Counted from the first letter of the whole stretch, positions 9,635 to 56,387 are shown. The stretch: 63,949 bases of DNA, filler included, from an uncultured Methanosarcinales archaeon (GCA_964550945.1; 4 parts of 4 records of this genome joined end to end with filler, not necessarily neighbours in it); one strand, 5' to 3'. The notes: a model not told the origin generated them from the sequence alone. A program made the numbers and translations.

Positions 9635-9635
9635 C

Positions 9636-16437: not shown

Positions 16438-17378
16438 TAATCATAACAACCAGATGTGTCAAATGCGCTGCAATCTCCTAAACAAGTTAAGGTTCCAGCA
16501 TCAAAGCCTTGTAATTGGCAGGTTTGGCCAGCTAAATTAGTGCCATCACATATTTCAGTTCCCTCAATCAGATTATTGCCGCAGATATAATTGAAGCAGC
16601 TTGTGGTATCAAATCCAGTGCAGTCTCCTAAACAAGCTAAATTACCACCATCAAATCCCTGGCTTATGCATGTCTGTCCAGCTAAATCAGTTCCATCACA
16701 GACTTCTGTGCCTTCTTTTATGTTGTTGCTGCAAATTCCTATTGGAGCAGATACACAATTGCTTGAGCTATCACAATAGCAAGGAGGTAATGCACATCCA
16801 ATTGTTGAATCACATTCACTAGGATCTTCTGCGTTGGTTATTGGAACTTGCCCGCAACCATTTATGCAATTAGGGTTATAGCAGATATTGTCTGGGCAAG
16901 CTGTTGTATCAGCTGGACAGTTCTCTCCTGGATTACAGACACCATCTGGGCAGGTTATTGTTAATTCGCCTATGCCTACATAAGTGTCAAATGCCTCTAC
17001 TGCCACCAAATAGCTGCCTTCTTCAGTTGGAATGTTTCCAGCAACCTGAAAATCAACAGTCCTGTACACATCTCTTGGATTTCCACCTGCATACATATTT
17101 ATGTTGAGGATTTGGCCAGCTATAGACACTGAATTGACATTATTGGGGAGAGTGATGTACACCTGGGTTTTTGCGCCTGTTCCCTGCTGGTAAACCAGTT
17201 CAGCTGCATTTGCAAGATCTTCTAATGATGTTTTTGCTTTTGTGACTTCAAACTTATTTGAAATAGAGCTGGTTATATCATCATTAACAGAAAGGATCGC
17301 AATGAATATGACTAATGCTATTGCTAGTATCACTATCAATTCTACTGCTGCCTGCGATTTATTTTTAATGCCTATCAT
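15852..17378 (-). CDS. Minor pilin/adhesin with three 50-aa Cys-rich repeats and C-terminal beta domain
   Basis: NKS/QAAVELIVIL class III signal; C[SG]NNxxEGTExCDGT repeats with a 150-bp period. Confidence 0.88.
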   Translation of the reverse strand: MIGIKNKSQAAVELIVILAIALVIFIAILSVNDDITSSISNKFEVTKAKTSLEDLANAAELVYQQGTGAKTQVYITLPNNVNSVSIAGQILNINMYAGGNPRDVYRTVDFQVAGNIPTEEGSYLVAVEAFDTYVGIGELTITCPDGVCNPGENCPADTTACPDNICYNPNCINGCGQVPITNAEDPSECDSTIGCALPPCYCDSSSNCVSAPIGICSNNIKEGTEVCDGTDLAGQTCISQGFDGGNLACLGDCTGFDTTSCFNYICGNNLIEGTEICDGTNLAGQTCQLQGFDAGTLTCLGDCSAFDTSGCYDYVCSNNIKEGTEICDGTDLAGQTCISQGFDGGNLACLGDCTGFDTSSCYTISCQEFYATAFEQSGATNPINVQGAPNNLYAILPTNANWVRGTGFSTATGTITSVEMAMDYHRVGTYANDMIRLRYLIGAAAGATTQNYYDASSDITVYKDVTADRAWAWSDITNMKVEASFRKSGAVDNLDWYVDGLWVRVCHT

Positions 17379-38866: not shown

Positions 38867-40425
38867 TGTTCAGTGATAGTAATAGTTGAAGGATCTGGAA
38901 CTGGATAGAACCCGGGAGATATCACAACAAAATTAAAAGTGCCATTTGGAACGTATCTTATCTCATAATTACCATTTAAGTCTGTTATAGCTATTGCTTC
39001 TTGCGACCAAAGGCCATTAGTGATTAGGACTCTAGCGCCACTCACTTTGTTGCTGGTGGTCTGATTATATACGTAACCGGTTATTTTAGCGCCTCCTGGT
39101 TCTTCACAGACTGTTGTTGAATATCTTGTTGTGGCTCCATCATAGCAGCAATAGCCAGTATCTGTAGTCAGGTTTCTTCTGTTAGTATCTGTAGTATAAT
39201 CATGAGGGCAATAACAATATCCCAATCCAACAAAAGCGTCATTATTGCTTTCAGTGATTTCTCCTGCATTGCAGAAGTTTTCATTGCAGTTTTGATAACA
39301 TGGGAAACCATCGCAGCCAGGATAAATGTAATAGGAGTTATCTGGGCATTCATCTTGGGAGTTACAGCAGTCTTGTATTGGTCCGTTTGGGTCTATATCT
39401 TGACAACATATTGAATTTGGACCATAAGCCTCTTGACAATCAGAATCATAGGTTGGATAAGGAGTGTTACAAGCTAGAATTCCTCTATCAGGAATACAAT
39501 CATAAGGTGAAGTGCATCTATTTGGGGCTGGACAACTGCTGTCATCAGTTGCTTCTGGTTCAAATGCTCCATCAACGCAGCACCAGCCTGAGCCAGCTGC
39601 TCTGACTTGCCCATCACAAATACAGGGAGTTTGTATAACCCCAGCTGAGCAATCAGAAACAGGAGTACAAGTAGAACCAATAGGATCTGTATCATAAGTA
39701 TTATCACTACAACAGAAACCCGAAGAATGCTCTTGACCTTGACAAATGCATGCTTGAGTTATCGTATCATTTAATGTGCAGTTATGCAATGGGGGCTGAC
39801 ATTCTACTAAACATTGGCTTTGGCTGGTATAATTTGCAGTATTATAAATGTTCCAGCAGCAATAGTCGGCTGCATTAATTTGACCGTCTCCACAATAACA
39901 GCTTACACTATTTGCTCCGCAGTCCATATCGCACACAGGTGATTGGCATTCATTAACATTTGGTCTTGGATCATTACAGGCTGTAGCTTCAATAGCTGAA
40001 CTTACAGGAGCACAACAATTTATTTTTGTACATGAATCAATGAAAGGAGCGGTTTGTATTGGTTCGCCTGAGGATTGGTTATAACAAGGATTATTGCCCT
40101 GGCTTACTGTATAACCTTGGTTATAGGTACCTTCTGCACCTAAACATTCTGATTCATTCCAACCATAACATCCAAAACCAGGAAGCAGACAACAACCTTC
40201 GCCTGAGGGCGTTGCAAGTAAATCAACCTTTTCTGCTTTTTCTTTCAACTCGTAACTAATCGGAACAATTCTTCCGAACTCTCTGTTTTCAGTTAGATAA
40301 TTAGATACAACTTGTGATGAAATAGGATTATCTTCCTGAGCATAAGCAGCAGGCCATAATATGATATTCATAATTATCCAAAATATCAAAAACTTATTCA
40401 AGCTCCTAGAGCTTGCCCTATTCAT
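38867..40425 (-). CDS. Cys-rich secreted protein with a carboxypeptidase-regulatory-like beta sandwich (3'-partial)
   Basis: N-terminal shared export module, repeated CxC..G.CC units, ITGYVYN..VSGARV..TDLNGNYEI. Confidence 0.8.
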
Positions 40426-40561
40426 TCTTTTCTTCCTCCAGTTTCCTTTTCATCAAGAATTCTAAGCCATGGCTTCTATTTGCAAAAATCTTTTCATCGA
40501 TTTTTTTATCTAACCAATTCAGAAGGTCTTTATCAAGGGTAATTGTTATTCTTTCTTTCAC
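40418..40561 (-). CDS. Small CopG/RHH regulator (47 aa, GTG start), not in the ORF track
   Basis: MKERITITLDKDLLNWLDKKIDEKIFANRSHGLEFLMKRKLEEEKNE; GAGGA SD; overlaps the next start. Confidence 0.8.
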   Translation of the reverse strand: MKERITITLDKDLLNWLDKKIDEKIFANRSHGLEFLMKRKLEEEKNE

Positions 40562-40995: not shown

Positions 40996-43377
40996 TTATG
41001 AATCGCAAATATTCCCTATACCATCAAGATCAGTATCTGTTTGATCTGGGTCCTGATCATGGTTTTGCGCTCCTGGAGGGGATTCTGGTTCCCATGTACT
41101 ATCGCCATCACCTTTAGGGCAGTTATCTGAAGCATCATCTACTCCATCATTATCATCATCTGAATCACATGCATCGCCTACCCTATCACTGTCAAAATCT
41201 GCTTGGTTAGGGTTATTTATTGTAGGGCAGTTGTCATCGCAGACTAAACTCTCCCCTCCTCTGCAAAAATTATCAGCACCAGAGTTGCAATCGCCTTGAG
41301 AGTTACATATTCCATCCTGATCCGTATCATCATTCTCGCAACACCAATCATTTGGACAGTTATTGCAAGCATCATTTAGGCCATTGCAGTTATATTTAGT
41401 GACAGAATCAAAAATACATCGATGATCATCAGTACAAGTGTAGCAAGTTTTGCATCCTTCTCCTTCTGCTTTCCAATCGTGATATCCTAATGGGGCTGTG
41501 GATTGATCACAGCAATAGTCGGGGTTGGGCTGTTTATAGTTGCAAGATATGAGCACATCAATAATCTGATAATCTTCTTTAAATTCGTCGTCTTTTATTG
41601 ATATGTTCACCTTATTTAAAGCAGGCGTATAATCAGCTGGAATTAAAAATGTCCCCCAAAAAGAAGAATTGCCATTAGGAAGCCAGCCACCATATGTATG
41701 TTTAACTTCATCCTCATCTGGATCCAAACCCCATGGAATCTCGCAGTTTACTGTAAAGTTGCAGTAGCTTGGCCGTGTGCTACTGTCAGACCTATTTAAA
41801 TTATGGTCAATAGTCACATTTTCTCCAAGAATGCCCTCCAAGTTGCTTAAATACTCTAAAGCAGGAATCCTGTTTTCAATGGCAAACAAAAAAACAAATG
41901 GTTTGTCGTCCAAATAAAACTCTTGATTATTATCTCTTATCATTAATATGTCACTATAATTTTGCCAATCATAAGAACAAAGCCCTGTTGCCTTGCATTG
42001 ATGCGGAACCTTTTTAACTTCCATTCCAGGATATTTGCATGGCCGCTCAAGAACTGTTTCATTAGGATTATCAGACCTGCAATCTAAAGGGTCATCATTG
42101 GATATGTTGAAAAAAATATTGTCGGCATCAGCTTTGGTATTGTTGGTGTTTATGCATTTAGCTCCTGATAATGAATCACATCCAATCAAATGAGAAGCCA
42201 GCTCATGAATTTTTTTAAATCTAATGCCTATATTTACCCTATACTTTTCAAAAAAAGTTTTTGGTGGCTGGCCGCCCATGCTTATCGTGATTGGATAGAT
42301 AAGCTCAGATATTGTGTCGTCATTTCCGAATAAAACCATAGAGGTTATATTCCCTATACTCGCATTATAGCCGTACGTTTGGCTTAATGATGATACATTC
42401 ACGCAATTTTTCATTCTTTCAGAAATGAATAGAGAAAGATATTTTTGTATGGTGTCTTTTTCAGTTAGATCATAAGTTTCACAACTAAACTCAAAGCCGC
42501 TAATGTTATACCAGTTTGGCGCTCCTTTTTTCCCGCTGCAAAGAGGAACAAGATTTGAGCCAGCAACCTTCCCCTCAAAAGGGCTATCATCTCCATTCCC
42601 AAAAGGATGGCTATTGCTTCCCCTTTCTGTTAAATTGCCTAGATAAGGATAATCTGGAACATTAGGTACTTCGGTTCCTCCTAAAACAGGAGCCCTAATT
42701 CCATAGGAGACATTATATATTTCATTATCTCCTCCTAAATATTGAGAGTAATTAAAAGGTAATGTGGCATTTTCATCAGGAATATGATAACCGCCAGCAG
42801 CCTGATAGTCATAGATTCTTCCACCCTGCAAAGCTAGAAGGTATACTGCTTTTTTTGTTTCGGTTTCTAAACAAGTTCTTACATAGCTATTAATCCCAGA
42901 TGTTGTCAGGAAATCGCTGTAGATCTTGTCTACATCCTTAACCTGCTTTTTGGATAGTGATGACTTGACATAGAAAATGAAGCCGAATACGATTGCAATA
43001 ACAAGGGCAAGGATAATGAACATTGTGATTTGCGATCTCTTTTGCTTGATCAATAAAGCGCATAAGAAAAGCATTAAAAACCAAACAATATAGATCAAGA
43101 GCAGCGGTTTTCTTGTTTGAATATTGCTTGTTTTTTCATTATCAGCTATGTTATTGCTGCTATCCCCATTAAACAAGCTAATCTTGTCAATCTTATTATG
43201 GGCATAGCTGTTGTATATTGGAGCTACCTTTCCAAACACCCCAATCTCATTATTTTCTTTTTTAATCTCTTTAGAGAGATAGCTAACCTCTTCAGTATAA
43301 ACAGCAGCAGCTGGCAAGGCTATCAGATTACAGATCAGCCAGCTTAAGATAAAATATCTAACAACTCGTTCAAGCAT
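40996..43377 (-). CDS. Large pilin-like surface protein with N-terminal export module, internal class III signal and thrombospondin type-3 Ca-binding repeats
   Basis: [53 protein letters not shown]. Confidence 0.85.
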
Positions 43378-43393
43378 AGATTTAACCTCTTTT

Positions 43394-43945
43394 TTATTCC
43401 ATAAAAATTATCTTTAAAGTGTAATCAACATTCCAAGTTTCTAGGAATGCCCTAAATAATTCAACTTTTTCCATAGGTATTAAAATAACGCCCGGTTTTA
43501 ATATTTTTCCATCGGTTTTCTTTAAGATTGATTCAGATTTATACCCCATCAGAACCTGGCTAAATCTCGATTTCCGTTTGACTTTTGTAAGGTTATAAGT
43601 AAAAATGCCAAAGCACTTCAGCCCAAATACATCCGCTATTTTCTTATTACTTACTACAGAAATGCCTTCCCTTATGATAGTCCTCCATAAGCTCTCGCTA
43701 TACAGCTCACTCAGTAAGATATGGTCAACATGGATAAGCTTATCCAACGATCTTATTTTATTTAAGACCGATTCATCTTTTTCTGTTCTGAATACTACTG
43801 CAATGTCTATATCAGATACAAACTCTTTAGCCTTAACCGCAGAGCCAAAGAGGATTATATCAAATATTTGCCCTTTATTGCTCTTGTAGATGGCCAATAA
43901 ATTCCTTTTCAAGCCCTGTAAGGTTGAGTGTTCGTTTAAGCCCAT
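43394..43945 (-). CDS. Minimal nucleotidyltransferase (MNT) with a C-terminal ferredoxin-like domain
   Basis: IILFGSAVK...SDIDIAVVF. Confidence 0.85.
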
Positions 43946-44237
43946 GTTTTATTGTGTTCAGCTCTTCTTTTGTGACAGAGCTCCTGTACGACTTTCGGTA
44001 GATATTGAACAATGAATCCACTAAGGCATATAGCTCCTTATTCTCTTTCTCTAGAATCCTGAAACGATCTGTATGCGAATCAGGGATTTTTCCTATTTTT
44101 TCATACAGGTAAAAATCGATAGAGTGTATTAAAGCCTTGAAAAAGCTGTCGCATGCAGGAATAAGCAAACCGCTTTTTTCAGCCAATCTTCCGCTTATTA
44201 TAAATTCTTTTACTCCCTGCCTTAGTCCATCTTTCAT
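43875..44237 (-). CDS. HEPN-domain protein
   Basis: FFKAL..D, PDSHTDRFRIL, YRKSY; paired with the MNT. Confidence 0.8.
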   Translation of the reverse strand: MKDGLRQGVKEFIISGRLAEKSGLLIPACDSFFKALIHSIDFYLYEKIGKIPDSHTDRFRILEKENKELYALVDSLFNIYRKSYRSSVTKEELNTIKHGLKRTLNLTGLEKEFIGHLQEQ

Positions 44238-44245
44238 TTAAGAAT

Positions 44246-44339
44246 GTTAAACGTATTTAACTATATAAGCTTTTCTGTTCTCTAGTTAAACGCGTTTAAT
44301 AAATAAAAAAATGTGGTGTGTTAGTTAAACGTGTTTAAC
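44246..44339. promoter_or_regulatory. Three 16-bp palindromes GTTAAAC-N3-TTTAA(C/T) at a 39-bp period
   Basis: GTTAAACGTATTTAAC at 44246, GTTAAACGCGTTTAAT at 44285, GTTAAACGTGTTTAAC at 44324, upstream of HEPN-MNT. Confidence 0.7.
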
Positions 44340-45687
44340 CACCTTGCTTGCCAAAAACGCCTTTAACAGTCTTAAAAACAACCATCAAATCCTCTTTTTC
44401 TATTAACTTGCTAAAAAATAATATTGGAATGATAAAAATCAAAATTAATACCCCAAAATACTTAAGATAAAAGCTCAAAGGAACTGTTAATACCAAGAAA
44501 TAGACTAGGTAATATCTTTTTAATAATCCCATCTTAAAAGCCAATAAGCTAAAAGCCAGCATATGCGCTACCATAGTTGCAACTGTAATGCCATAAAGCC
44601 CGAATTTAGGGATTAAAGCGATATCCAGCACAATGTTTAACAAAGCTGCTAGAACGATTGGCCAGAATGCTTTTTCTGGAGTTAATTTCCCAGCCAAAAA
44701 GGTGTACATCAAACTGTAAACAGCATAAAACAATATTCCGATAGAGAGTATCATAACAAATGGCTCAATGCCTGCATATTTTGGAAAAAATATCCTGATT
44801 ATCAGAAACAAAAATGAATTGATCAAAATAGCGAATATCAATGAAAATGAAAAAGAGAGCCTCAAAGTCCTGTGGAACATGCCTTCTGAATATTTCTTTA
44901 TTTTTTCTTCTGCGCTTCTTGTCAATAAAAACATTGAAAGGGAGATGGGGATTAATGTTATTACGTTAGAGATAGGGCCTGCAATGTTGTATTTGGCGAC
45001 ATTTTCAAAAGTGGACATGATGCCTAAAATGATGGAGTCGATCCAGCCGAGAAAGGAAAATGATAGAAATATCAAAGAGATAATAAATCCTTTTTTAACG
45101 TAACTAATAATTTCAGGAAGTTTCAATTGAACTTTGGATGCTATAGCAATAAACTCTTTTTTTGTTACTGCCAAAGCCAAAATCGCTGGAACAAAATAAC
45201 CCAAAGAGTAACCAAGAAGTATACCTAACTCACCAAACACCCTAAAAATGAACACCCCACCTAGAGTTGCAACAGAACCCAATAAAATGAATAATTGCGC
45301 AAGGTGGTATTTATGTTTCGATCTAAGTATAACCTGGCCAACGAGATTTATAAAATTAAAAGGAATAGCTAATATCAAGGGTAATAGCCATAAATGATTG
45401 ATAGACAAGATGATGCCTAAGAGGGTTACTAATAAATTCAAAGATAACAAAAAATAGAACACAGAATGTACATCCTTTTTCCTTACCAACCATGATATAA
45501 AAATCTCGCCTCCCCCCAGATTACAAAAATAGGTTGCTATTAGATACATTGATAAAACAAATGAGGCTTTACCAAATGAATCTTTAATAAAATAGTTTCC
45601 TAACAAAAGTAATAAAAAATAGGTAATCACCTTTGAAGAAAGCATCATCAAGAATACAAAAAATGTTTCTTTTTTTCCTTTTGGCAT
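44335..45687 (-). CDS. Oligosaccharide flippase (Wzx/MOP family)
   Basis: 12-14 TM; GWIDSIILG..VAKYNIA; LNIVLDIALIPKFGLYG. Confidence 0.88.
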   Translation of the reverse strand: MPKGKKETFFVFLMMLSSKVITYFLLLLLGNYFIKDSFGKASFVLSMYLIATYFCNLGGGEIFISWLVRKKDVHSVFYFLLSLNLLVTLLGIILSINHLWLLPLILAIPFNFINLVGQVILRSKHKYHLAQLFILLGSVATLGGVFIFRVFGELGILLGYSLGYFVPAILALAVTKKEFIAIASKVQLKLPEIISYVKKGFIISLIFLSFSFLGWIDSIILGIMSTFENVAKYNIAGPISNVITLIPISLSMFLLTRSAEEKIKKYSEGMFHRTLRLSFSFSLIFAILINSFLFLIIRIFFPKYAGIEPFVMILSIGILFYAVYSLMYTFLAGKLTPEKAFWPIVLAALLNIVLDIALIPKFGLYGITVATMVAHMLAFSLLAFKMGLLKRYYLVYFLVLTVPLSFYLKYFGVLILIFIIPILFFSKLIEKEDLMVVFKTVKGVFGKQGG

Positions 45688-45802
45688 TTTATATTCAAGA
45701 TAGTGTTATGACTAATTATTTATAAGTCTTATCATTATCCAAGATGGTTTTCTTTTAGAAAGATATTTAAAAGGTTAAGTAAGTTATAAAAAAGAGGCTA
45801 AT

Positions 45803-46438
45803 ATGAGTTATTACACCCAAAAGATGTATACCTATGGTACAACTTTTTATGACTATTACACCTATTACCTTTTTAGAAGACTAACTAAAAACGCAAATCC
45901 GAAAATATTAGAAATTGGTTGCTCAAAGGGGAATTTCTTAGCAGTAAATCCAAAAAACATAATTGGTGTAGATATCGACAAATCTGCTCTAGGGATATCA
46001 AAAAAAAGAGGGCTAAATTGTAAGTATATGAATATAAACAATAGGATTAAGTTTCCTAATAATGTTTTTGATTGTGTTTTAACGAGTCATGTGGTGGAAC
46101 ATTTGCCACTAGATAAAACCATACTCCATTTTAGAGAAATTTATAGAATATTAAAACCAGGAGGAATAGCAATAATTTATACACCTAACATTCAAAATGT
46201 AAAGTGGCATTTTTACTGGGACCCAACACACATAAATCCATTTAATAAAGAAAAACTTTTTAGGGCCGCCTATGAAGCTGGATTCAAAGAACAGAACATT
46301 ATTGTTAAGTACCAATGGGTGTATTTACCAGGATCTACTCGTGTTTTTAAGATTCTTAAAAGTGCTATGTTTAAAGTTCAAGATTTCCTTAACATTATAC
46401 ATGATAAAAGAAACATAATGGCGATCCTAAAAAAGTAA
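45803..46438 (+). CDS. Class I SAM-dependent methyltransferase
   Basis: ILEIGCSKG, FDCV..SHVVEH, LKPGG, DPTH. Confidence 0.9.
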   Translation: MSYYTQKMYTYGTTFYDYYTYYLFRRLTKNANPKILEIGCSKGNFLAVNPKNIIGVDIDKSALGISKKRGLNCKYMNINNRIKFPNNVFDCVLTSHVVEHLPLDKTILHFREIYRILKPGGIAIIYTPNIQNVKWHFYWDPTHINPFNKEKLFRAAYEAGFKEQNIIVKYQWVYLPGSTRVFKILKSAMFKVQDFLNIIHDKRNIMAILKK

Positions 46439-46440
46439 GG

Positions 46441-47574
46441 TCAATCTTTTCTTCTAATCTGCCTATGAAGTTTCATTACGGCATTAAACACTTCGCCCAC
46501 TCTAACTGAGGTTATGCAATTATGGTCCCTGCATTTTGTAAATCTGTCAGTTCCAAAACAAGGCGCGCATCTAATTTTTGAATAAACTGCAATAGAGTTT
46601 TTATTTAACGGAGCCAATCTCATCGGATCTGTAGGTCCAAATATTGAAACCGTAGGTACACCCATAGCAGAGGATATATGCATCGGAGCCGAATCATTAG
46701 TTATGAACAAATCACATCTACCAATCACTGCAGCACTTTGTCTAATAGTGGTCTTTCCTGTAAAATCTAAAATTCTTTTTTTATCTAATCTTGATAATAT
46801 TTTAGCTTGTTTATTGTCTTCTTGCCCCCCTATTAGGATTATATTGCAATTGTAGTCTGATATTAATTTTTTTACTAGTTTTTCATAATATTGTGTGGGC
46901 CACTGTTTGGATTCTGTTGGATAGCCGGGTTTAATCCCCCCTCCTGGACATAAACCAATCAACAATTTGTTTCTAAAACCTGTTTTTTTAAAATGCTGGC
47001 CAGCAAATTTGATATCCTCTTTAGATAACTCCAGTACCATTTTTTTGTCATGGCCGTTTATACCTAAAAATTTAATCATATCCAGAAAGTAGTCTAGGAC
47101 ATGTTTATCTTGAGTATATTGCACCGTATGAGTAAGCGAAAATCCCTCCCCATTGAAATCAAAACCAATTCTAATAGGTATGCCGCATAAAAATGAGAAT
47201 ATTGGTAGACTAAACATCTCACAAACTATACAAGCATCAAATTTCTCTTTTTTTAGTTTTTTTATAAACTTCATACCCCATTTTTTTTTAATAAAAAAAT
47301 TATTATCGACAATAATCACATCATCAACATATTTATTATTTACAATTATATCTTTGGACCAATCAGAACATAGGCATACAATTTTTGTTTTAGGCAAATT
47401 TTTCTTAATCGCTTTAATCATAGGGGTTGTTATTAACACATCTCCTATGGCATAAGGTACAATAATCAAAATTTTTTTAATTTTTTTAGGGTTGATTATG
47501 AATTTTTTTTTAGTAAATAAAATTTTCCCGACTAGGATTAATAGCTGCACTAATTGTTTTTTGCCCATAATCAT
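46441..47574 (-). CDS. Glycosyltransferase family 9 (heptosyltransferase-like)
   Basis: AIGDVLITTP, KQWP, FTGKTT, TNDSAPMHI, FGPTDP, CAPC. Confidence 0.9.
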   Translation of the reverse strand: MIMGKKQLVQLLILVGKILFTKKKFIINPKKIKKILIIVPYAIGDVLITTPMIKAIKKNLPKTKIVCLCSDWSKDIIVNNKYVDDVIIVDNNFFIKKKWGMKFIKKLKKEKFDACIVCEMFSLPIFSFLCGIPIRIGFDFNGEGFSLTHTVQYTQDKHVLDYFLDMIKFLGINGHDKKMVLELSKEDIKFAGQHFKKTGFRNKLLIGLCPGGGIKPGYPTESKQWPTQYYEKLVKKLISDYNCNIILIGGQEDNKQAKILSRLDKKRILDFTGKTTIRQSAAVIGRCDLFITNDSAPMHISSAMGVPTVSIFGPTDPMRLAPLNKNSIAVYSKIRCAPCFGTDRFTKCRDHNCITSVRVGEVFNAVMKLHRQIRRKD

Positions 47575-48185
47575 TTTTTACACACCAAGTACACAACCTC
47601 ATGGGGAGCAAACTTCAATAAAAGATTAAAAATATTTATTACCCAGTTTTTTGGTAAACCCACTAAATAACATTCTGTTCTAAACCCAAACATCTGAGTA
47701 AATAACGCCTCATCTTTTCCTGTCGGCGGCTGTAGATGGGTCCTGTCTCTAAAGTACTCAAAGCCATTAAGATTGAAGAAATAAGGGTAGATTATTATCA
47801 GAATTCCTCCTTTCTTCAAAAGATTGTAAGCTCTTATAAGAAAGGACTCTTTCTCTTTCTCAGTCAGATGTTCATAGACATTATCTGCTATGATAAAATT
47901 AAATTTAATTGAAGATTCATTGTAAAAATCAAAAAATATTTTTTGTTTTTTCAGCCATTTAATTGTTTGTCTGTCAATATCAAATCCATAGTAGGTTGCA
48001 TTCTCCTTAAGAGATTTCTCATAGATTTTGCTCTCTAGATTAGAACCAAAATCAAGCACAGTTTTATCCTTAAACACGAACGTTTTGTTAAACCACCTGT
48101 CCTTATTGAAAGGGAACCATACCCTATTAATTTTTAGATTGCCCCTCCTTTGATAGATCAGGTTGTAATCTTTTTTAGTTCTCAT
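47571..48185 (-). CDS. Class I SAM-dependent methyltransferase
   Basis: VLDFGS, GFDID, VYEHL, LKKGG, DRTH. Confidence 0.82.
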   Translation of the reverse strand: MRTKKDYNLIYQRRGNLKINRVWFPFNKDRWFNKTFVFKDKTVLDFGSNLESKIYEKSLKENATYYGFDIDRQTIKWLKKQKIFFDFYNESSIKFNFIIADNVYEHLTEKEKESFLIRAYNLLKKGGILIIIYPYFFNLNGFEYFRDRTHLQPPTGKDEALFTQMFGFRTECYLVGLPKNWVINIFNLLLKFAPHEVVYLVCKK

Positions 48186-48977
48186 TTGGTTAACTTCATT
48201 TTAATAAATTCAAACAAACTTATATACCTGCCTAAAAGATCTAAAGTGACCCATAAAAAACTCAATTTAAAATTTTTTATTGTAAACCAGTATTTAAAAA
48301 ACAAATAAATCATTATAGGCGGGAAAAAGCATGGGGCAAAATATCTCAACTTAGCGTAAGACATAGTATTTACAAAGTACCTTCCTTGCCATTTTCTTTG
48401 CCTGACAAAATCAGAAAACGTCTCTGTGTCTATGTGATAGATTATAATATTGCTATATCTCTTATTAATCCCTTCCAAATCCATCCTTTTATTTAAATCT
48501 TCATCTTCATAAAACATAAGTCGTTCGTTGAATTTATGTTTATTAAATATCTTCTTATCATAACCCAAGCTAAATTCATTTCTATNNNNNNNNNNCTTTT
48601 TGAAAAATTGTTTTAGGATTATAAGACAACACAGTCAGGGATAATCTCTCAAAGGGCATATACATTTGTACTTTCTCTATAAAATCAGGCAAAACAACAT
48701 GGTCAGCATCTAAGAATATTATATATCTTCCCTTGGCCCGCTTAACCCCCTGGTTTCTTGCAAAGGAAACCCCATGTCCCTCATTAAAATTTACTAAACG
48801 AATAAATTTATATTTTTTTGAAAACTCACTGACCACTCTAGCTGTATTGTCAGTTGAGCCGTCATTTACAACTATAACCTCATAGCCACCATTTTGATTT
48901 AATAAGCTATTCAACAGATGGTGTATTGTTTTTTCCTCATTATGGGCCGGCGTTACTATAGAAATCAGATTTTTCAT
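48182..48977 (-). CDS. Glycosyltransferase family 2 (one gene split by the 10-N gap at 48586-48595)
   Basis: SIVTPAHNEE, VNDGSTD, FLDAD in the 5' part; EDEDL..R and RQRKW in the 3' part. Confidence 0.82.
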
Positions 48978-49654
48978 TCTTTAACTCCTATTATTATCAA
49001 ATTTTCACCTATAGGGGGCATTACTAACCTCTTCAGTTTATATTGGGCATATCCTGGTATTAAAAAAGCTTTTTGAATTGATTTAGGTAAAAAGGAAAAA
49101 TAGGGTATATCCCAAAACCCATCGCTCGCAAGTTTTGTTATCCTAAATTCATATTTTTTTAATAAATCAATCCACTCTTTTTTTGGCAGTATAGATAAAT
49201 GGGTTTTGTCTGTGAAACCAAACCAATTATCCTTCTTTAAAAATCTCAAAATAGAACTTGTGTTCGGAACACTTATCACAATTATACCTCCCCCCCCAAT
49301 AATCCTAGAACACCCCTTAAGGCATTCTTCTGGTTCTCTCAAATGCTCCAATACATCAAATAGCACAATAATATCAAAATAATTTTGCTTAAATTTTTTT
49401 AAATTTATAGCATCCATCACGTAAACTTGTTTGAGTCCAGTCGCTTTTAGTTTTTTAATAGTCTTAGCAGACCTATCAACCCCAAAAACATTATAAAATT
49501 TATCTGCTCTCTTAAGAAAATGCCCTTCTGCACAGCCGATTTCAAGCAGATTCCCTTTTTTTTTATAAGTTTGCAGAATATTCACCCAGAAATCCCAGCG
49601 TAATGGGGTGTCTCTATACACTATAAAATAATCGTTATAATTATTAAATTTCAT
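48974..49654 (-). CDS. Class I SAM-dependent methyltransferase
   Basis: LLEIGCAEG, FDVLEHL, SVPN, DKTH. Confidence 0.9.
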   Translation of the reverse strand: MKFNNYNDYFIVYRDTPLRWDFWVNILQTYKKKGNLLEIGCAEGHFLKRADKFYNVFGVDRSAKTIKKLKATGLKQVYVMDAINLKKFKQNYFDIIVLFDVLEHLREPEECLKGCSRIIGGGGIIVISVPNTSSILRFLKKDNWFGFTDKTHLSILPKKEWIDLLKKYEFRITKLASDGFWDIPYFSFLPKSIQKAFLIPGYAQYKLKRLVMPPIGENLIIIGVKE

Positions 49655-50769
49655 TTTAATAATCTCTCATATTCTAAAGTATAAGATTCCACTATTCTTT
49701 TCCAATAATAGGAAGATCTGATTAGGTTTACAATTTGTTTTGACGAAAATTTTGTTCCTCTTATCATTTTGATTATGTTCTCTTTGATATTATTGGTGTC
49801 AAATGGATTCATGTAATACCCTCTCTTTCTTGGGATAGTGTCTCTTATACCTCCAACGTTGCTTCCAATAACGGGCAATCCGCAAGCCATAGCTTCAATA
49901 ACAGCAATCCCAAACGGCTCAACAATGCTTGGCTGGATATAAAAATCAGCACTTGAATACACCTTAGGCATAAAAGAATGATCGATGAAGTCAGTAATCA
50001 AATGCACATTAGTAATGTTATTGTTCTTTATTAAATTCAATAATTTATTTTTTAATGGCCCTTTGCCAATGATAACTAATTCGCAAGGCACGTTTTTCAT
50101 AGATAGGATTAATCGTTCTAGATTTTTGTAAGGAACTAGCCTTGCAACACACAACCCCATTTTCCTATTTTTTTTGATTTTTAGTTTTTCTCTTAGGTAA
50201 TTGCTCTTCACAGGTTTAAACATAGAAATGTCTACACCAACGGAAATAACCTTTATTTCCTTTTTAACTCCTTTTTTGATAAGATATCCTTTTGCTGCGC
50301 TTTCATGCACAGTTATAGTGTCTGCTTTTTTTCTGACATATCTCGCATATAGATTATCAATAAAAAAATAAGGAATGTTTTTTGGAAATGGGGGGTCATA
50401 GTATCTCTCATTAGAAACAATAAAGGGGATCTTATTTTTCAACGCGTATTTTAATGCTTTGTAGCAAATGTGCTGGTAGTCTTCCTGAGCGTGGATTATA
50501 TCAAAATCATATTTTTTTAAAGCTTTTTCTAGGCCAAAAACAATAGGCCAGCCAAATAAATCAGAGAATGTATTCAAATATACAACATCAAAATTAGATC
50601 TTGTTCTTTGTTCTTTATCTAAAACATTCAACCTCCCTTTCTTTAAATTTGAAGAGAATATAATCACCTTATGGCCCTTCTTAGCTAAAAAATGAGCTAA
50701 TCCATACTCATTGCTTCCGATTGAGCCTGAAAAATAAGGCACGACAATTGCTATTGTTAGTTTCTCCAT
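49651..50769 (-). CDS. Glycosyltransferase family 4
   Basis: VARLVPYKN, EPFGIAVIEAMACGLPVI. Confidence 0.92.
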   Translation of the reverse strand: MEKLTIAIVVPYFSGSIGSNEYGLAHFLAKKGHKVIIFSSNLKKGRLNVLDKEQRTRSNFDVVYLNTFSDLFGWPIVFGLEKALKKYDFDIIHAQEDYQHICYKALKYALKNKIPFIVSNERYYDPPFPKNIPYFFIDNLYARYVRKKADTITVHESAAKGYLIKKGVKKEIKVISVGVDISMFKPVKSNYLREKLKIKKNRKMGLCVARLVPYKNLERLILSMKNVPCELVIIGKGPLKNKLLNLIKNNNITNVHLITDFIDHSFMPKVYSSADFYIQPSIVEPFGIAVIEAMACGLPVIGSNVGGIRDTIPRKRGYYMNPFDTNNIKENIIKMIRGTKFSSKQIVNLIRSSYYWKRIVESYTLEYERLLK

Positions 50770-51902
50770 TTTTTTAGAGATTTTGTTACTGCATTAAAAA
50801 CATTATCTACTTTGATCAGTTCCATACAATTTGGCTTTCTACTACAATAATATTGGCCGCAAGGCGAACACTCAACCTTTTTTTGTAAAATTATCTTTTT
50901 ATCTGTTAATGGCCCAAACCTATCGGGGGATTCTGGACCAAATAAAGCTATTAGGGGGGTTCCAACTGCAGCCGCAATGTGTGCTGTTGCAGAATCATTT
51001 CCAATATATAGGTCAGAACCCTTAATCAAAGCTGTTAATTCCCTTAGATTGGTTTTTCCCGTGGCGATACATAGATTTGAATCAACTCCGCTTTGGATAG
51101 ATTCTGCTAGATTAAGCTCGTCTTTAGATCCAATTAAGATAATTTTTGCATTCAATTTTTTGGTTAATAGCCTTATGAGTTCCGTATAATTATCTTTTGG
51201 CCATGCCTTAAAAATTCGTGAAGCGCCCGGATTGATTGTTATTTTCAAATCGTGAGTTTTAATACTGCACTTATTAAGAAAATTGATCACAAAAGTTCCC
51301 TCTCTTGGGGTGAGATTGATAAGTGGGTTTTTATTAACCCCATTCACCCCTAACTCTTTAATAATTTCAAGATTTCTTTCGAACTTATGCTTTTTTAATA
51401 ATACTTTTCTATTTTTGATAGAATTAGTTCCAAAATCGACCCTATATTTAGCTCCCTTAAACAAAGCCAAAATCAAAGTTCCAAAACTGCCTCTAAGATC
51501 GATAATAAGTTCATACTTTGCCTTAAATAAACCCTTTATTGTTTTAATGTTTTTGAATATGTTATATCGGTTGTTTCTTTTAAAAAACAGGGAATCATAT
51601 TCTATCACTTTATCAACATAAGGGTTTTTATTAACCAAATCAACGCATAAAGAATTAACTAACATATCAATTTTAGCATTTTTAAAGTATTTTTTAACGT
51701 TTGTTATGACTGGAGTTGCTAAAATAACGTCTCCTATATGGTCTAATTTTATTATCAAAATCTTTTTTATTTTAGATGGATCATCAATCTTTTTTGTATA
51801 AAGAATGAGGTTTATCAGGTATGAAATTATAATAATTAGAATCTCGTATGTTTTCCTAACATAATATCTACTAAAACAGACCAGATAATTGTTTTGTTTC
51901 AA
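50757..51902 (-). CDS. Glycosyltransferase family 9 (heptosyltransferase-like)
   Basis: DHIGDVILATP, NPGAS..KAWP, GKTNL, GNDSATAHIAAA, CSPC. Confidence 0.9.
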   Translation of the reverse strand: MKQNNYLVCFSRYYVRKTYEILIIIISYLINLILYTKKIDDPSKIKKILIIKLDHIGDVILATPVITNVKKYFKNAKIDMLVNSLCVDLVNKNPYVDKVIEYDSLFFKRNNRYNIFKNIKTIKGLFKAKYELIIDLRGSFGTLILALFKGAKYRVDFGTNSIKNRKVLLKKHKFERNLEIIKELGVNGVNKNPLINLTPREGTFVINFLNKCSIKTHDLKITINPGASRIFKAWPKDNYTELIRLLTKKLNAKIILIGSKDELNLAESIQSGVDSNLCIATGKTNLRELTALIKGSDLYIGNDSATAHIAAAVGTPLIALFGPESPDRFGPLTDKKIILQKKVECSPCGQYYCSRKPNCMELIKVDNVFNAVTKSLKKWRN

Positions 51903-51947
51903 TCAACCACCCAAATATATTTAAATCACCCTTGTTTATAAAGATAT

Positions 51948-52823
51948 ATGCTCTCAATAATCATAACGACCTATAAAGAGCCGAAAACAATTGGAAAAGC
52001 CATTGAAAGCTTTACAAATCAAAAGATAAAAGATTATGAATTGTTAGCCCTGTGCCCAGACAAAGAAACCGCTGATGTGATAAAACAATATTCAAAAAAG
52101 AATAAGAAAATAAAATATATAAAAGACCTAGGAAGAGGGAAACCCAGTGCATTAAATCTTGCACTTAAGAAAGCTAAAGGAGATATTTTGGTTCTAAGCG
52201 ATGGTGATGTTTTTGTTTCTAAAGATTCTGTAAGCTTATTGTTAAAGCATTTTAAAAATAAAAAAATAGGCGCAGTAACTGGGAGGCCGGTTTCAATAAG
52301 CGAAAGGAATAGTATGCTTGGTTATTGGTCTCATTTATTGACTGAAGCTGCACATAAAACTAGGATTAGAAGAAAAGATAAATTTATTGATTGCTCTGGT
52401 TACCTGTATGCTACAAGAAACATCATAAAAGAGATTCCGAAAGACTCCTTATCGGATGACGCGGTAATCTCGCATTTAATCTGGGAAAAAGGATATAAAA
52501 TCGATTATGAGCCAAAAGCTGAGGTCTATGTAAAGTACCCTACTAACTTCAGAGACTGGATTAAACAGAAGAAGAGGTCTGCAGGAGGGTATAATCAAAT
52601 AACTCAGTTTTTTGGCAAGACTGAAAAAATGCGTTCTTTTTCTCGCGAGATTATCTTTGGTTGGTATAAAGCACTAACATACCCGAAAAACATAAAAGAA
52701 TTTATTTGGACATTGCTATTGTTCATTGCAAGACTTTATCTGTGGATACTAATTTATGTTGATATAAACTTAAAGAAAGAAGAGTTTAAAAAAACCTGGC
52801 AACGGGTTGAAAGCACGAAATAA
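51948..52823 (+). CDS. Glycosyltransferase family 2
   Basis: SIIITTYKE, GKPSALN, SDGD, SDD, QKKR. Confidence 0.88.
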   Translation: MLSIIITTYKEPKTIGKAIESFTNQKIKDYELLALCPDKETADVIKQYSKKNKKIKYIKDLGRGKPSALNLALKKAKGDILVLSDGDVFVSKDSVSLLLKHFKNKKIGAVTGRPVSISERNSMLGYWSHLLTEAAHKTRIRRKDKFIDCSGYLYATRNIIKEIPKDSLSDDAVISHLIWEKGYKIDYEPKAEVYVKYPTNFRDWIKQKKRSAGGYNQITQFFGKTEKMRSFSREIIFGWYKALTYPKNIKEFIWTLLLFIARLYLWILIYVDINLKKEEFKKTWQRVESTK

Positions 52824-52850
52824 GGGTGTGAGGAAAATAAGTTGAGAGTT

Positions 52851-53864
52851 TCACAGAATATACAATACAACCGCTACAAAAATTAGTTCAAATACATACA
52901 AACTATAAACTATATCTCTTTCAAAAACTTTCTTCTTTATTATCTTCAAGAGCAAGATAAAGAAATGAGTCAGGCTATAGATTTTTTTATAAGGCATTTC
53001 TAAACTATTGTCTTTGTTTGGCTTTCCAAAGCTTTCTTTTTTAAATTTCCCTCTTAACTTCAAGAAGAATTCAAATATAAACGGGATCAATAAAAACAAA
53101 GCAGCCTTCTCAGCATTTCCTAAGATGGCGACAATTGCAATAACAGCTCCGACACAATAAGTCAAAGTATCTCCTGGGAAGATTTTTGCCGGATACAGAT
53201 TGAACAATAAAAAAGCCACTAAGCATGCTACCATAACTGCTGCAATCATAGCTACTTTGCCTAATCCCTGGTCAATCCAGATGATATAGCCTAAGGCGCC
53301 TAAGATTATTATGCCAAGGCCTGATTCTAATCCATTATACCCAGCAAGCATATTAAAGCCATTTGCAAAAACCATAATGAATATTGGAACAAAAAATAAC
53401 GGATAAATAATCCCTATATCAATCTGGCCTATTAACGGCAAGATCATCTGTGACTTGCCGACATTAATCATCATTATAGGCAAGGCTGCGCATAATGTCA
53501 GAAGTGGCTTTTGCCATTGTTTTAAGCCAATCTTCCATCCAAGGATGTCATCCATCAATCCAATAATTGCGATTATTGTTATGGTGCTTATAGCCCCTAA
53601 AATCTCCAGATTAAATTCTGTTGTTTTATTGATGAAAGTCCTGTAACCCAGATACAAAAAAACGCCAAGCAGAAAACCCATCAAAACAGGCAATCCGCCG
53701 ATCTCTGCAACATTTCTTTTGTCAAATTTATTCATATCAGCTCCAATCAAGCCTGTTTTTTCTGCTCTTCTGATCCACCATTTTGCAGCAAAGAAAGTAG
53801 CAAAAAAAGCTATTATTATGCACACAATTAACAGTATGCTAATCATGTTGCTAGCCATCTCCAC
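52851..53864 (-). CDS. Polyprenyl-phosphate GlcNAc-1-phosphate transferase (GPT/MraY family, AglH-like)
   Basis: DMNK..VAEIGG, GLMDD, NGFNMLAGYNGLE, PAKIFPGDT; multi-TM. Confidence 0.9.
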   Translation of the reverse strand: MEMASNMISILLIVCIIIAFFATFFAAKWWIRRAEKTGLIGADMNKFDKRNVAEIGGLPVLMGFLLGVFLYLGYRTFINKTTEFNLEILGAISTITIIAIIGLMDDILGWKIGLKQWQKPLLTLCAALPIMMINVGKSQMILPLIGQIDIGIIYPLFFVPIFIMVFANGFNMLAGYNGLESGLGIIILGALGYIIWIDQGLGKVAMIAAVMVACLVAFLLFNLYPAKIFPGDTLTYCVGAVIAIVAILGNAEKAALFLLIPFIFEFFLKLRGKFKKESFGKPNKDNSLEMPYKKIYSLTHFFILLLKIIKKKVFERDIVYSLYVFELIFVAVVLYIL

Positions 53865-55108
53865 AAAGGCTCATATTTTATTTTCTTCCCTTCGATTGTT
53901 TCTTCATTTAACATATCATCAGTAATAACAATTCCCTCCTTTAGTTTATATTCGTCCATAAATTTCAGCAGCCCTTTTATATCTTTTTTCCTTATATTAT
54001 TTTTATATTTAACCTCAACCGGAATAGTCTTTTTGTTTATAACTATAAAATCAACTTCCTTATTCAAATCTCTCCAATAGTGGTCTGTTTTAAGAGCAAA
54101 CATTACTAAATTTTCTACAACTTTTCCTACATCAGGAGAATCTAAAGCCAAGGCAAATGCAGGATGGGACAAATAATATTTCTTAAGTTTCCTAGAAGAA
54201 ACTTTCAAGGAGCCCCTGTAGTTTTTGAGGCCGTTCACAACAAAGCAGCTGCACAAATAATAAAGGTAATTGCTGATCAGTTGCCTGCTCCTCCCAAAAT
54301 CTTTTGACAGGTCTTCAAGGCTGACTATCATGCCAGGGTTATTGGCCAGAATATGCACAATTTTATCAATCAGCTCTATGTCGTGGATTCCAAATAACTG
54401 GGTTAAGTCCTTAAATATCACCTTTTCAATAACTCCCTCTTTTATATACTTCTTAGCCAGCTCATCATCTGCATTTACTGTTTCTGGAAATGGCCGCAAA
54501 AGATAATTGTTGAGCTCCACCCTTAGTTCATCTTTCCATAATAAAACATTCTCTTTGATTTTCTGCATTTTTTTTCCTTTAAGTGTTAGGAACTCCTGAA
54601 AACTGAGCAAATGGAGGGTAAAATAAAAAATTCTTCCGGCCAGGTTTTCCTTGGCATAAATCAAAATATTAAGTGAAGCAGAGCCAGAAATGAAAATCTT
54701 AATATTGGGATGAGTGTCATAAATAATCTTAATCTTATTTTGCCAATCGCTTAGTTTTTGAATCTCATCAAAAAAGAAATACAGATTACCCTCACCCAAA
54801 CCTTTTCTCAGTATGTGCTCTTTATACAGGTTTAGTATGTCATCTAGATTCTCAACCGTTTCATCAAAGGAAAAATAGAGTATGTGCTCAGGCTTAATAC
54901 CTTGATTAAGCAAATGCTGAATGACCTGATATAATAGGGTGGTTTTTCCTGTCCTTCTTAGACCCAATATTGCTGTAATCTGCCTTAGGCTGATTGATTC
55001 AATTATTTCTTGAAAAATTTCTCTTTTGAACTTTGGAGTGAGTTCTTCTTTGGCATGACCCACTTTCCACCAAGGGTTTGCTTCAACTAACTTGCTAACA
55101 TTCAACAT
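53843..55108 (-). CDS. AAA_14 ATPase with DUF4143 domain
   Basis: NPWW, GLRRTGKT, FDEIQ, SGS, LAGR, ENLV..EVDF..PVEVK. Confidence 0.92.
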   Translation of the reverse strand: MLNVSKLVEANPWWKVGHAKEELTPKFKREIFQEIIESISLRQITAILGLRRTGKTTLLYQVIQHLLNQGIKPEHILYFSFDETVENLDDILNLYKEHILRKGLGEGNLYFFFDEIQKLSDWQNKIKIIYDTHPNIKIFISGSASLNILIYAKENLAGRIFYFTLHLLSFQEFLTLKGKKMQKIKENVLLWKDELRVELNNYLLRPFPETVNADDELAKKYIKEGVIEKVIFKDLTQLFGIHDIELIDKIVHILANNPGMIVSLEDLSKDFGRSRQLISNYLYYLCSCFVVNGLKNYRGSLKVSSRKLKKYYLSHPAFALALDSPDVGKVVENLVMFALKTDHYWRDLNKEVDFIVINKKTIPVEVKYKNNIRKKDIKGLLKFMDEYKLKEGIVITDDMLNEETIEGKKIKYEPLWRWLAT

Positions 55109-55217
55109 ATTCGTTATATAAAACTAACTGATATTTAAACTTTTCGCAAAAATAAACATAAGAGGGCATTATTGGTTAATCTTACATAACCAATATTCAA
55201 TATAATCGTTATGTGAT

Positions 55218-56369
55218 TTAATCCACTAATTCCCATCTTATTTCCAAATTGCGATCATCTTCATCCAATAATATGGAAAATCCCTCTTCTTTTTCAATAG
55301 CTTCAATAGTCCTATTAGCTGTTTTGCTTGTTATGTTTAATGGATTTAGCTTTGTCTTAAAATCCACTTTTGTATTGTTAATAAGCTTGTTAAGAGTGAT
55401 ATAAGAGCGCATTTCCTTGTAGTCTGTTGTCAGCTCTGCGCTCATCTCCTCTGTTTTTCTTATGTATAAATTTAGATCGTTTGCTGCAGCAAACATTGTT
55501 TTTTCTCTTGGAATATTTTTTAAGAAGCCTTCAAAATTGTTAGTGTCTTTTATTGCCTCTTTGTTTAAGAGTAGGACAAATACCCCTTCTTTTCTTATGT
55601 CTTTTTCCTGGTAAAGGGGATAGATAAGGATGTTCATCTTGCCTCCGACTAAAGAATCAGGATGAAGCGGCTTTGTTGAATTGCCTACACTAAGCAGGAT
55701 AAATTCAATATTATTGTTTTCTGCAGCTAAGATCGTGTCGTAATTTGCCTGCAGTGATGGAGGGATAAACCCTTTAACAACCATTCCCTGGCCTTTGAAA
55801 GCTAATTTTGACTGCCTTATCAGCCTTTCCTGGTATTTGTAGGGTATCTCTGTGTATGGCTGGTTGATGTAGCCAGATGCCTCAAAATCCACATTAGTGA
55901 GGTTAGTAATGTTAAATGCAAGAGAAGGATAGCCTGTTATGAAATCCTCGTAATTATTGCCTTCCTGGGCTGTTAAAAATATTGTGATTGGAGTTTTATA
56001 CTTTGTGGTTGTTTTTGATATATTTTTAATAAATCCAATATCGTTATTTGTTAAGGGCTTGTCAAAATCAACAGCTAAAATTACTGCTCTTTGGTATTCT
56101 CCTGGATAGATGCTGAACTCCATGCCAATATCAACTATGACTGGCTTGCCATAATTAAGAAGAAAAAATAATGCAATGACCAAAACAGCTATCAAGATTA
56201 TGAATATGTTTGTTTTATTTTTGAAGAATTCTATTATCTTCAATGGATTTTTTTGTTTTTTTGTTTTTTCTATCTTAGCGCCGCAGAAAGAGCAATGGAT
56301 GGAATCAGCATCAATCTCTTTTCTGCAAAAACTGCAATGGGCCTTTACTGGCTTATTTATTTCTTTCAT
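55218..56369 (-). CDS. Zinc-ribbon plus TM plus degenerate polysaccharide-deacetylase-like domain
   Basis: CSFC..CSFCG, TM, AVDFD..PITIFL..GFIPP without the metal-binding histidines. Confidence 0.65.
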   Translation of the reverse strand: MKEINKPVKAHCSFCRKEIDADSIHCSFCGAKIEKTKKQKNPLKIIEFFKNKTNIFIILIAVLVIALFFLLNYGKPVIVDIGMEFSIYPGEYQRAVILAVDFDKPLTNNDIGFIKNISKTTTKYKTPITIFLTAQEGNNYEDFITGYPSLAFNITNLTNVDFEASGYINQPYTEIPYKYQERLIRQSKLAFKGQGMVVKGFIPPSLQANYDTILAAENNNIEFILLSVGNSTKPLHPDSLVGGKMNILIYPLYQEKDIRKEGVFVLLLNKEAIKDTNNFEGFLKNIPREKTMFAAANDLNLYIRKTEEMSAELTTDYKEMRSYITLNKLINNTKVDFKTKLNPLNITSKTANRTIEAIEKEEGFSILLDEDDRNLEIRWELVD

Positions 56370-56387
56370 TAAATTCACCTTAGTTAC

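Follow-up and report, generated by a model that had tools for sequence, protein, structure and literature searches.

The stretch of DNA analysed here (the window; 63,949 nucleotides in four concatenated contigs of an uncultured archaeon, GCA_964550945.1, referred to as G000) contains two open reading frames (ORFs), 12727–13935 on contig C27 and 40996–43377 on contig C30, which share an N-terminal leader in front of an internal class III (archaeal prepilin-type) signal. The leader is a real and undescribed element, wider than pilins, and its best explanation is that of a removable N-terminal sorting (address) tag on surface proteins, predicted to be read outside the membrane; this reading is given a probability of about one half. 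It is very likely that the leader is real and translated and, judging from sequence, likely that it is removed again; the address function is the uncertain step.

The element occurs in two builds, and in both of them a signal peptide, a polar or acidic stretch and the motif GxFGK[IV]xP make up the first segment predicted to be extracellular. Tags of the direct build close with E[KR]xxL[L], immediately before the native mature start of the attached protein (the passenger), and in the return build a second helix leads back inside and is followed by an intact class III, lipoprotein or Sec signal belonging to the passenger itself. Since a native mature start is left after a possible second cut in every build, the leader would act during biogenesis and then be removed, and the many copies on unrelated secreted proteins together with the sporadic distribution are marks of a sorting domain. 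A sequence-only reading of the window had proposed a pilin polyprotein module and asked whether its relatives are consistently followed by a transmembrane (TM) helix and a class III site; the proposal was too narrow, as only about 28 of 83 copies are followed in this way and 41 are fused directly to secreted proteins.

The leader copies in the window

Copy A is, like copies B and C, encoded on the minus strand and a Shine-Dalgarno (SD)-like GAGGT (43385–43389) is found 8–12 nt before its upstream ATG. The first helix (TM1, aa 1–25, 43303–43377) is a predicted Sec/signal peptidase I (SPase I)-type signal with W13, N17, P22 and an A-x-A c-region as putative cleavage site. It is followed by the core tag motif GVFGKVAPI (aa 46–54, 43216–43242; consensus GxF[GSA][KR][IVL]xP[ILV]), by DKISLF (43171–43188), in which the element closing direct-fusion tags, E[KR]xxL[L], is retained, and by the return helix TM2 (aa 92–110, 43048–43104), identified by hydropathy and a helix also in the AlphaFold model. 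The class III site KRS/QITMF (the slash marks the cut; S115 ends at 43033) and its pilin-type helix, assigned by homology and model, cover aa 113–136 (42970–43041), and passenger A (40996–43032) is a Cys-rich class III-signal surface protein with C-terminal TSP3 repeats from a widespread Woesearchaeota family.

The leader of copy B (aa 1–122, 13570–13935) contains a signal, the tag motif (13756–13782), a return TM and the site KKG/VLFT, so that the class III site lies behind TM1 and TM2 at residue 115 in copy A and 122 in copy B, in both cases after a hydrophobic helix and a basic loop. It sits between the native start junction of its family and the family's class III site, and its start (13935) and the last bases of the pilin gene upstream overlap, as is also the case at the 'VQ' starts of several untagged orthologues. 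Passenger B (12727–13569) is pilin-like and the last of a five-gene class III run upstream of a type IV pilus (T4P) ATPase and a platform gene; the other four class III genes of the run (13923–17378, minus strand) all lack the leader and serve as an internal control. The upstream starts, TM helix and class III site that had been proposed for both ORFs are confirmed by the sequence and, for the start at 43377, by the SD word. A third copy had also been counted and is indeed present on C30 (copy C, in the ORF starting at 40425; leader aa 1–71, 40213–40425), but it is of the direct-fusion type, with a signal, the motif FGRIVP and EKVDLLA, and has neither return TM nor class III site, which was overlooked earlier; its Cys-rich secreted passenger is cut by the contig end.

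An ungapped comparison of leaders A and B gave exactly the 32 identities in 64 positions that had been claimed, with pS 0.76 and pN 0.26, the synonymous sites being saturated. The junction between leader and passenger A at 43033 is spanned with zero differences by contigs of two other runs (X3, 42507–43477 and X4, 42833–43139, both of the same study and hence not independent of it) and is therefore no assembly join. The genome (1.97 Mb, 177 contigs, 36.6% GC, 92% complete) is Woesearchaeota-like, homologues being named Candidatus Woesearchaeota, and near-identical DNA was found in groundwater metagenomes of one study, possibly that from which the genome comes.

Anatomy of the leader

The set of 83 copies consists of 19 from this genome and 64 from 11 other genomes (seven further copies, noticed later, lie outside these counts), all situated within open frames of at least 167 aa in surface-protein genes. 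At its core the leader combines a cleavable-type Sec signal with a stretch of about 20 polar or acidic residues and the motif GxF[GSA][KR][IVL]xP, and the conserved alignment columns are P23 (78 copies), A25/A27, G47 (63), F49 (75), K/R51 (70), I/V/L52 (82) and P54 (61). Sorting by script gave 41 direct copies, 29 with return helix and class III site, 6 with return helix and a second Sec signal or helix, 4 with return helix and lipobox and 3 with return helix only; by eye, two of the 29 were reassigned to Sec signals and one of the 3 to class III, so that the return copies were 28 class III, 8 second Sec signal or helix, 4 lipobox and 2 return only. The builds carry different markers, E[KR]xxL being found in 30/41 direct vs 7/42 return copies and W14 and N18 in 35/42 and 38/42 return copies vs 4/41 direct copies each, counts that include related, and so not independent, copies.

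The motif keeps a constant position relative to TM1: its F is 26.0 ± 2.0 residues from the TM1 proline, the motif follows the predicted signal cut by 21.6 ± 2.2 residues, and the last charge before the h-region is 41.4 ± 3.3 residues ahead of the F. To the motif Pro the distances are about 31 residues from the TM1 proline and about 46 from this last charge, and from F to TM2 there are 17 to 53 residues. A deviating copy was seen in L264:1334-2962 (G050:C83), where the motif comes directly after the signal cut without a spacer and leads into a return helix, behind which stands the Sec signal native to the family.

In 39 copies the n-region has on average 2.7 K+R vs 0.6 D+E, the outside loop 4.1 vs 7.1 and the loop that precedes the class III helix 2.4 vs 0.5. 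These charges fit an N-terminus inside, a loop outside and a class III site inside, so that the earlier proposal of a Sec signal, outside loop, return TM and cytoplasmic class III site is supported and the basic site is not placed outside the cell. The small folded outside domain that was part of the same proposal did not appear; AlphaFold gave helices and an unstructured loop (pLDDT 53–60) without a predicted fold, and the motif shows an alternating hydrophobic pattern together with two further, weaker strand-like patches. As had been expected, no known domain was matched: searches of the module and of all 83 copies against Pfam and NCBIfam revealed no family common to more than 2 members, a PDB profile search of the module gave two weak hits only (E 0.035 and 0.14) and an Atlas search with residues 1–140 no usable hit.

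Copies and passengers in the genome

When surveying 16,543 six-frame ORFs of the genome with an iterated module profile, 18 ORFs were found at E<1e-4, which exceeds chance, together with two borderline ones; 19 copies were kept, one further copy being borderline. Eight of the 19 precede class III sites, one precedes a lipobox and 10 are fused directly to large secreted proteins, the passengers including, according to Pfam, YadA-head repeats, Ig/PKD/cadherin arrays, a propeller-bearing S8 subtilase and a GH9/FN3 protein of 4,327 aa. A motif scan of the genome without a spacing rule, its matrix trained on the same 19 copies, returned these and one other hit vs 0.46 expected, and no off-position motif above background was seen. 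The genome encodes one prepilin peptidase (A24, PF01478, 294 aa, over cut-off) and one archaeal SPase I. Large S8 subtilases are themselves among the tagged proteins, clearly so for L010:3219-8891 and borderline for L012:2072-6775 in this genome, and also for P0056, which makes them a lead for the protease that might cut the direct fusions.

Addition to ordinary genes and movement between them

Among 30 examined loci (of 42 matches) of the family of the 793-aa passenger A, the leader is present in four (this genome, G008, G026 and G027) and absent from 25; that is, 25 of the 29 non-self loci are leaderless and start at or shortly before the class III site. All 15 homologues of the 402-aa passenger B are leaderless as well and likewise start at the class III site or a little ahead of it, several of them with the same 'VQ' start junction as is found before the leader here. 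The class III sites proposed in the sequence-only reading are accordingly genuine by homology. Orthologues starting at the internal site with an unconserved upstream part had been named as evidence against the proposal; most orthologues do start there, but the upstream part is conserved across other families and the leader is therefore a lineage-patchy addition. One homologue of passenger A (L265:40-5844, minus strand, G021:C36) starts with a two-helix hairpin resembling TM1-TM2 and has no outside tag, and the module profile finds nothing in the G021 genome.

In a family of 1,169-aa proteins (34 rows), 25 are untagged, six have the tag behind the signal cut, two have TM1-tag-TM2 before the native signal and one is truncated. 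In these six, about 40 residues separate the signal cut from the native mature start, and in three it is clearly the family's own signal that stands ahead of the insertion. The untagged orthologues show that the tag was added either before the native signal or right behind the signal cut. When three genes of a syntenic operon were compared, this genome tags two of them, G065 the third and G026 none.

Leaders from one genome fall together (28 changes vs 38.1 ± 1.7; 62 rows, without the sister genomes), as do leaders of one build (12 changes vs 20.9), and leaders on one passenger family do not (14 changes vs 13.2 ± 0.8; 25 rows), in trees of about 50 columns to which composition may contribute. 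For 25 of 38 copies the mean identity is higher to unrelated leaders of the same genus than to leaders on orthologues. Grouping by genome is expected from copying within the genome or from co-evolution with a genome-specific reader.

Selection on the leader

The dN/dS values, calculated from 18 pairs (17 cross-genome pairs and one paralogue pair), were 0.22 for TM1, 0.36 for the spacer, 0.16 for the motif, 0.27 for the part after the motif and 0.20 for the passengers, and paralogous leaders showed pS of 0.60–0.76. Codons of the motif residues vary freely and the folding of the tag DNA is unexceptional (mean z -0.2, 19 copies), so that the element is one at the protein level. In-frame palindromic DNA repeats of the Rickettsia RPE type have DNA-level conservation and hairpin structure; the tag differs from them, as no DNA-level conservation, palindrome or hairpin was found in it.

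Distribution among genomes

The order was surveyed with a 57-row profile in 401 genomes, 33 of which matched at E<=1e-3 and 12 of which (this one included), in eight family codes, carry the motif. Seventeen genomes with weak matches showed plain signal peptides without motif when inspected; the inspection covered all but four of the 33 (G207, G374, G396 and G348), and the call of tagged genomes rests on neither of the unpublished genomes G207 and G374. Each of the 11 other tagged genomes has from 2 to at least 14 copies, numbers that are lower bounds since at most about 14 candidates were scored per genome. A 400-genome sample of the phylum gave 13 matches, two of them true and 11 to the signal only, adding no new genome and none confirmed outside the order. 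A library-wide search found 52 proteins, 13 of them from this genome, and the remainder show the same builds.

When 18 untagged genomes, 14 of them from the same sub-clade, were searched with a return-type profile, a match was found only over TM2 or the class III helix, or not at all, except for one weak hit to the signal region in G172. A single clade of tagged genomes is not supported: 10 of 11 fall in one sub-clade yet are interleaved with 14 untagged ones, and on an RpoA1 tree (55 rows, two sister genomes omitted, G150 without the marker, weak deep support) tag presence requires 8 changes vs 8.5 ± 0.7 when shuffled and is thus unclustered. Phage records and viral contigs gave no relative in searches with single-protein queries, which have low sensitivity.

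A proposed sorting tag and its alternatives

In the proposed mechanism the leader would be exported by Sec and cut by SPase I after A-x-A, and the exposed motif would be bound as an extended strand by a dedicated receptor, chaperone or protease at the membrane. This partner would route the passenger to a surface assembly site, or time its arrival there, and a second cut would free the passenger with its native N-terminus; in return copies this cut would fall to the prepilin peptidase, to SPase I or to the lipoprotein machinery, and in direct copies to some protease acting at E[KR]xxL[L]. The two-step processing proposed earlier for copy A would then be one case of a general system, and the earlier interpretation is partly supported, the two cuts being predictions from sequence. 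More tentatively, the leader could belong to a step of export or sorting that is new to science and used by a subset of Woesearchaeota. It would be placed before class I, lipoprotein or class III signals (which become internal and are cut second) or be inserted after a signal cut, there to be taken off by a protease of its own, and it would either address proteins to a host-contact apparatus or pause the ribosome until the translocon pulls.

Several observations weigh against the sorting tag. No cognate receptor or protease was found in the gene neighbourhoods of the copies in 12 genomes or in larger islands in two genomes, which gave only passengers, glycosylation genes and small regulators, and there were no RNA data sets among the near-identical DNA matches. 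Most class III proteins of this genome are untagged, only two copies each were seen in G027 and G040, and a tag that shifts among the genes of one operon is odd for an essential address. The grouping of leaders by genome may partly reflect amino-acid composition, and a prepilin peptidase would putatively have to cut a loop tethered between two helices.

Among the alternatives, a built-in translation pause is unlikely, though several numbers recall it. The motif, when in the ribosome tunnel, would hold elongation until TM1 engages the Sec translocon, so pacing the synthesis of very large or abundant surface proteins, and the leader would then be discarded. The constant spacing from TM1 proline to F beside the variable one from F to TM2 agrees with this, as do the single extra hit of the spacing-free scan and the about 46 residues lying between the h-region's start and the motif Pro, since pulling is described to begin once a helix has its N-terminal end about 45 residues from the peptidyl transferase centre (PMC7886326). 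The K/R/Q at -3 and Pro at 0 also recall RAPP-like arrest motifs, which are likewise patchy (PMC10987492). Against a pause, however, the Pro is present in only 61/83 copies and the hydrophobic residue after it and the E[KR]xxL further downstream are conserved, the G050 copy has lost the spacer yet kept the motif, and the distance from the predicted signal cut is equally constant; pause and receptor models could not be told apart by counting residues either from where the helix ends or from the predicted cut. Known arrest peptides of this kind, moreover, are short upstream ORFs (uORFs) of sec or yidC with the motif near the C-terminus (PMC10987492), and genes of the SRP54/FtsY type are alike in tagged and untagged genomes. 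Loss of SRP as a reason for the tag was likewise rejected, as all 53 genomes searched have SRP54-family genes, most of them two, tagged or not. Only one SRP54-family GTPase was found in this genome (G000:C12:6782-7363), as in G027, G150 and three untagged genomes.

A little less likely is a passive, near-neutral leader which brings a good start and signal peptide, spreads by recombination between the 5' ends of surface genes and survives only where the normal peptidases remove it. Its hops between neighbouring genes, its grouping by genome, its absence from most orthologues and its presence only where processing would restore the passenger would all follow, and in G150 the signal typical of the 1,169-aa family is found on unrelated passengers. 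A neutral leader does not, however, account for a motif conserved across eight families, and in return copies too, where it is unneeded for removal, at a dN/dS of 0.16, and neither the lack of DNA-level conservation or palindrome nor that of viral relatives in the low-sensitivity single-protein searches speaks for it. The alternating hydrophobic motif and strand-like patches, unstructured alone, could instead mean that the tag persists, or is set free, as a separate product, either a docking strand tying many passengers to a common scaffold or to one another or a peptide signal reporting secretion, and processing of the return type would leave a membrane-anchored peptide showing the motif outside. 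This was judged the least probable of the three; the passenger folds are unrelated, no scaffold or receptor candidate was seen in the neighbourhoods and islands examined, and because the second cut of the return build separates tag and passenger the tag cannot tether the mature pilin. A misread start is close to refuted. The genes would begin at an internal TTG with the upstream frame untranslated, and both A and B have TTG-Ile-Lys ahead of the class III site, where most orthologues start. This codon, which the sequence-only reading had considered a possible relic or alternative start, finds no support as a relevant feature: SD words are found at the upstream starts and none before the internal TTGs, and among 27 class III copies only 10 carry a start codon no more than 12 codons away from the site, one of them with an SD-like word, the other 17 carrying none. 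The leader is furthermore under purifying selection, and in direct copies it supplies or follows the sole signal peptide.

Comparison with known systems

Removal of a leader or pro-region by a second protease after a first targeting step is known from the twice-processed type V pilins of Bacteroidota and the capsid-targeting sequence of T4. The sorting tag has no sequence link to these, in which envelope and enzymes are different, and serves class I, II and III passengers.

PEP-CTERM was recognised from a conserved short motif next to a helix that recurs on unrelated exported proteins and is distributed patchily over genomes (PMC1569441). The tag resembles the PEP-CTERM/exosortase system in its short motif by a membrane helix, its many copies per genome and its sporadic occurrence, but PEP-CTERM is C-terminal and has the PEP motif, whereas the tag is N-terminal, has no PEP and is prefixed to or placed behind other signals; gene neighbourhoods, moreover, revealed no co-distributed processing enzyme for the tag. 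A conserved signal sequence often means specialised secretion, and the YSIRK signal directs the site of secretion (PMC12445088). Like YSIRK/G-S signal peptides, the tag is a conserved N-terminal export signal on unrelated surface proteins. It lacks YSIRKxxxGxxS at the start of the h-region, however, the columns showing W14, N18 and P23 without Pfam match, and its motif lies outside, about 20 residues past the predicted cut, in archaea and also in a form with a return helix. By analogy the tag may work like PEP-CTERM or YSIRK, being a member of neither.

The class III rule of archaea asks for a positive residue at -2, a small one at -1 and a hydrophobic helix thereafter (PMC3387779, PMC6098224). 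Passengers A and B follow it, with K/R at -2, a small residue at -1, an accepted +1 and then the helix; their untagged orthologues are ordinary short-leader substrates for a PibD/EppA-type enzyme, and the one A24 peptidase is encoded. In tagged passengers, unlike such substrates, the site is about 85–125 residues inside the chain behind two helices and there is no short free leader. For lipobox passengers, the archaeal lipoprotein-processing enzymes are described as unidentified (PMC6098224). An 806-aa frame without tag in L266:1525-3942 (G071:C9) starts with a Sec signal, continues for about 560 extracellular residues and comes, by way of a return helix, to an internal class III site KKS/Q before a pilin-like passenger. 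Arrest peptides such as SecM, MifM, ApdA/ApdP and the RQH peptides share with the tag an N-terminal signal, a spacer of >30 residues, a motif usually ending in Pro and patchiness (PMC10987492). The tag is, unlike these, part of long surface-protein genes and no sec/yidC uORF, the middle residues of its motif are V/I/L and T and not RAPP-like, and conservation continues past the Pro.

No description of the element was found in the literature on internal class III signals, on Woesearchaeota signals or propeptides or by the motif letters (mostly open-access main texts), and passages from a survey on the type IV filaments of archaea published in 2026 (PMC13705601) do not mention it. Two matches to GxFGK in the literature concern the flavivirus fusion loop and were taken as coincidence.

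New processing enzymes have repeatedly been discovered through multi-copy sorting motifs, and the tag-positive and tag-negative genomes give a defined profile for enzyme hunting in DPANN archaea, whose surface machinery is poorly understood; the reach is limited to 12 confirmed of 401 genomes in one order. The tagged class III proteins are natural substrates for asking whether prepilin peptidase cuts an internal, membrane-tethered site and, if the more tentative reading holds, archaeal prepilin peptidases would cut tethered loops in polyprotein-like precursors. Tagged proteins will escape predictors that look for class III sites or lipoboxes close to the N-terminus.

Neighbouring genes and other observations

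The genes downstream of the class III run of copy B (8756–11147, minus strand) encode a type IV filament ATPase (FlaI/PilB-like, below the FlaI cut-off) and a platform-like membrane protein. Within the run, two neighbouring class III genes at 14317–17378 have an identical C-terminal region of about 200 aa and two genes have the same 18 translated residues up to KAQI; these shared stretches are either a recent tandem duplication or an assembly repeat.

A basic 47-aa ORF (40418–40561, minus strand), ribbon-helix-helix (RHH)-like by eye and without Pfam hit, overlaps the start of copy C. A cassette of regulator and leader was tried and rejected (2/19 vs 5/169 controls, p 0.15), using a uniform filter for small regulators that missed some ORFs visible by eye. 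Small RHH- or AbrB-like ORFs, as judged by eye, lie ahead of several leader copies and often head runs of surface genes, tagged or untagged, and in this comparison were not specific to the tag.

At 43394–44237 an MntA-like nucleotidyltransferase with an extra C-terminal domain is located after a 120-aa ORF without family hit, and small ORFs that to the eye look like this extra domain stand ahead of tagged genes in G050, G008 and G212. A glycosylation cluster (44335–56378) with flippase-, glycosyltransferase- and AglH-like genes, named by eye, adjoins gene A, and the same glycosylation families together with an AglB-like gene are found near the homologues of gene A in G026 and G065 (L099 and L306).
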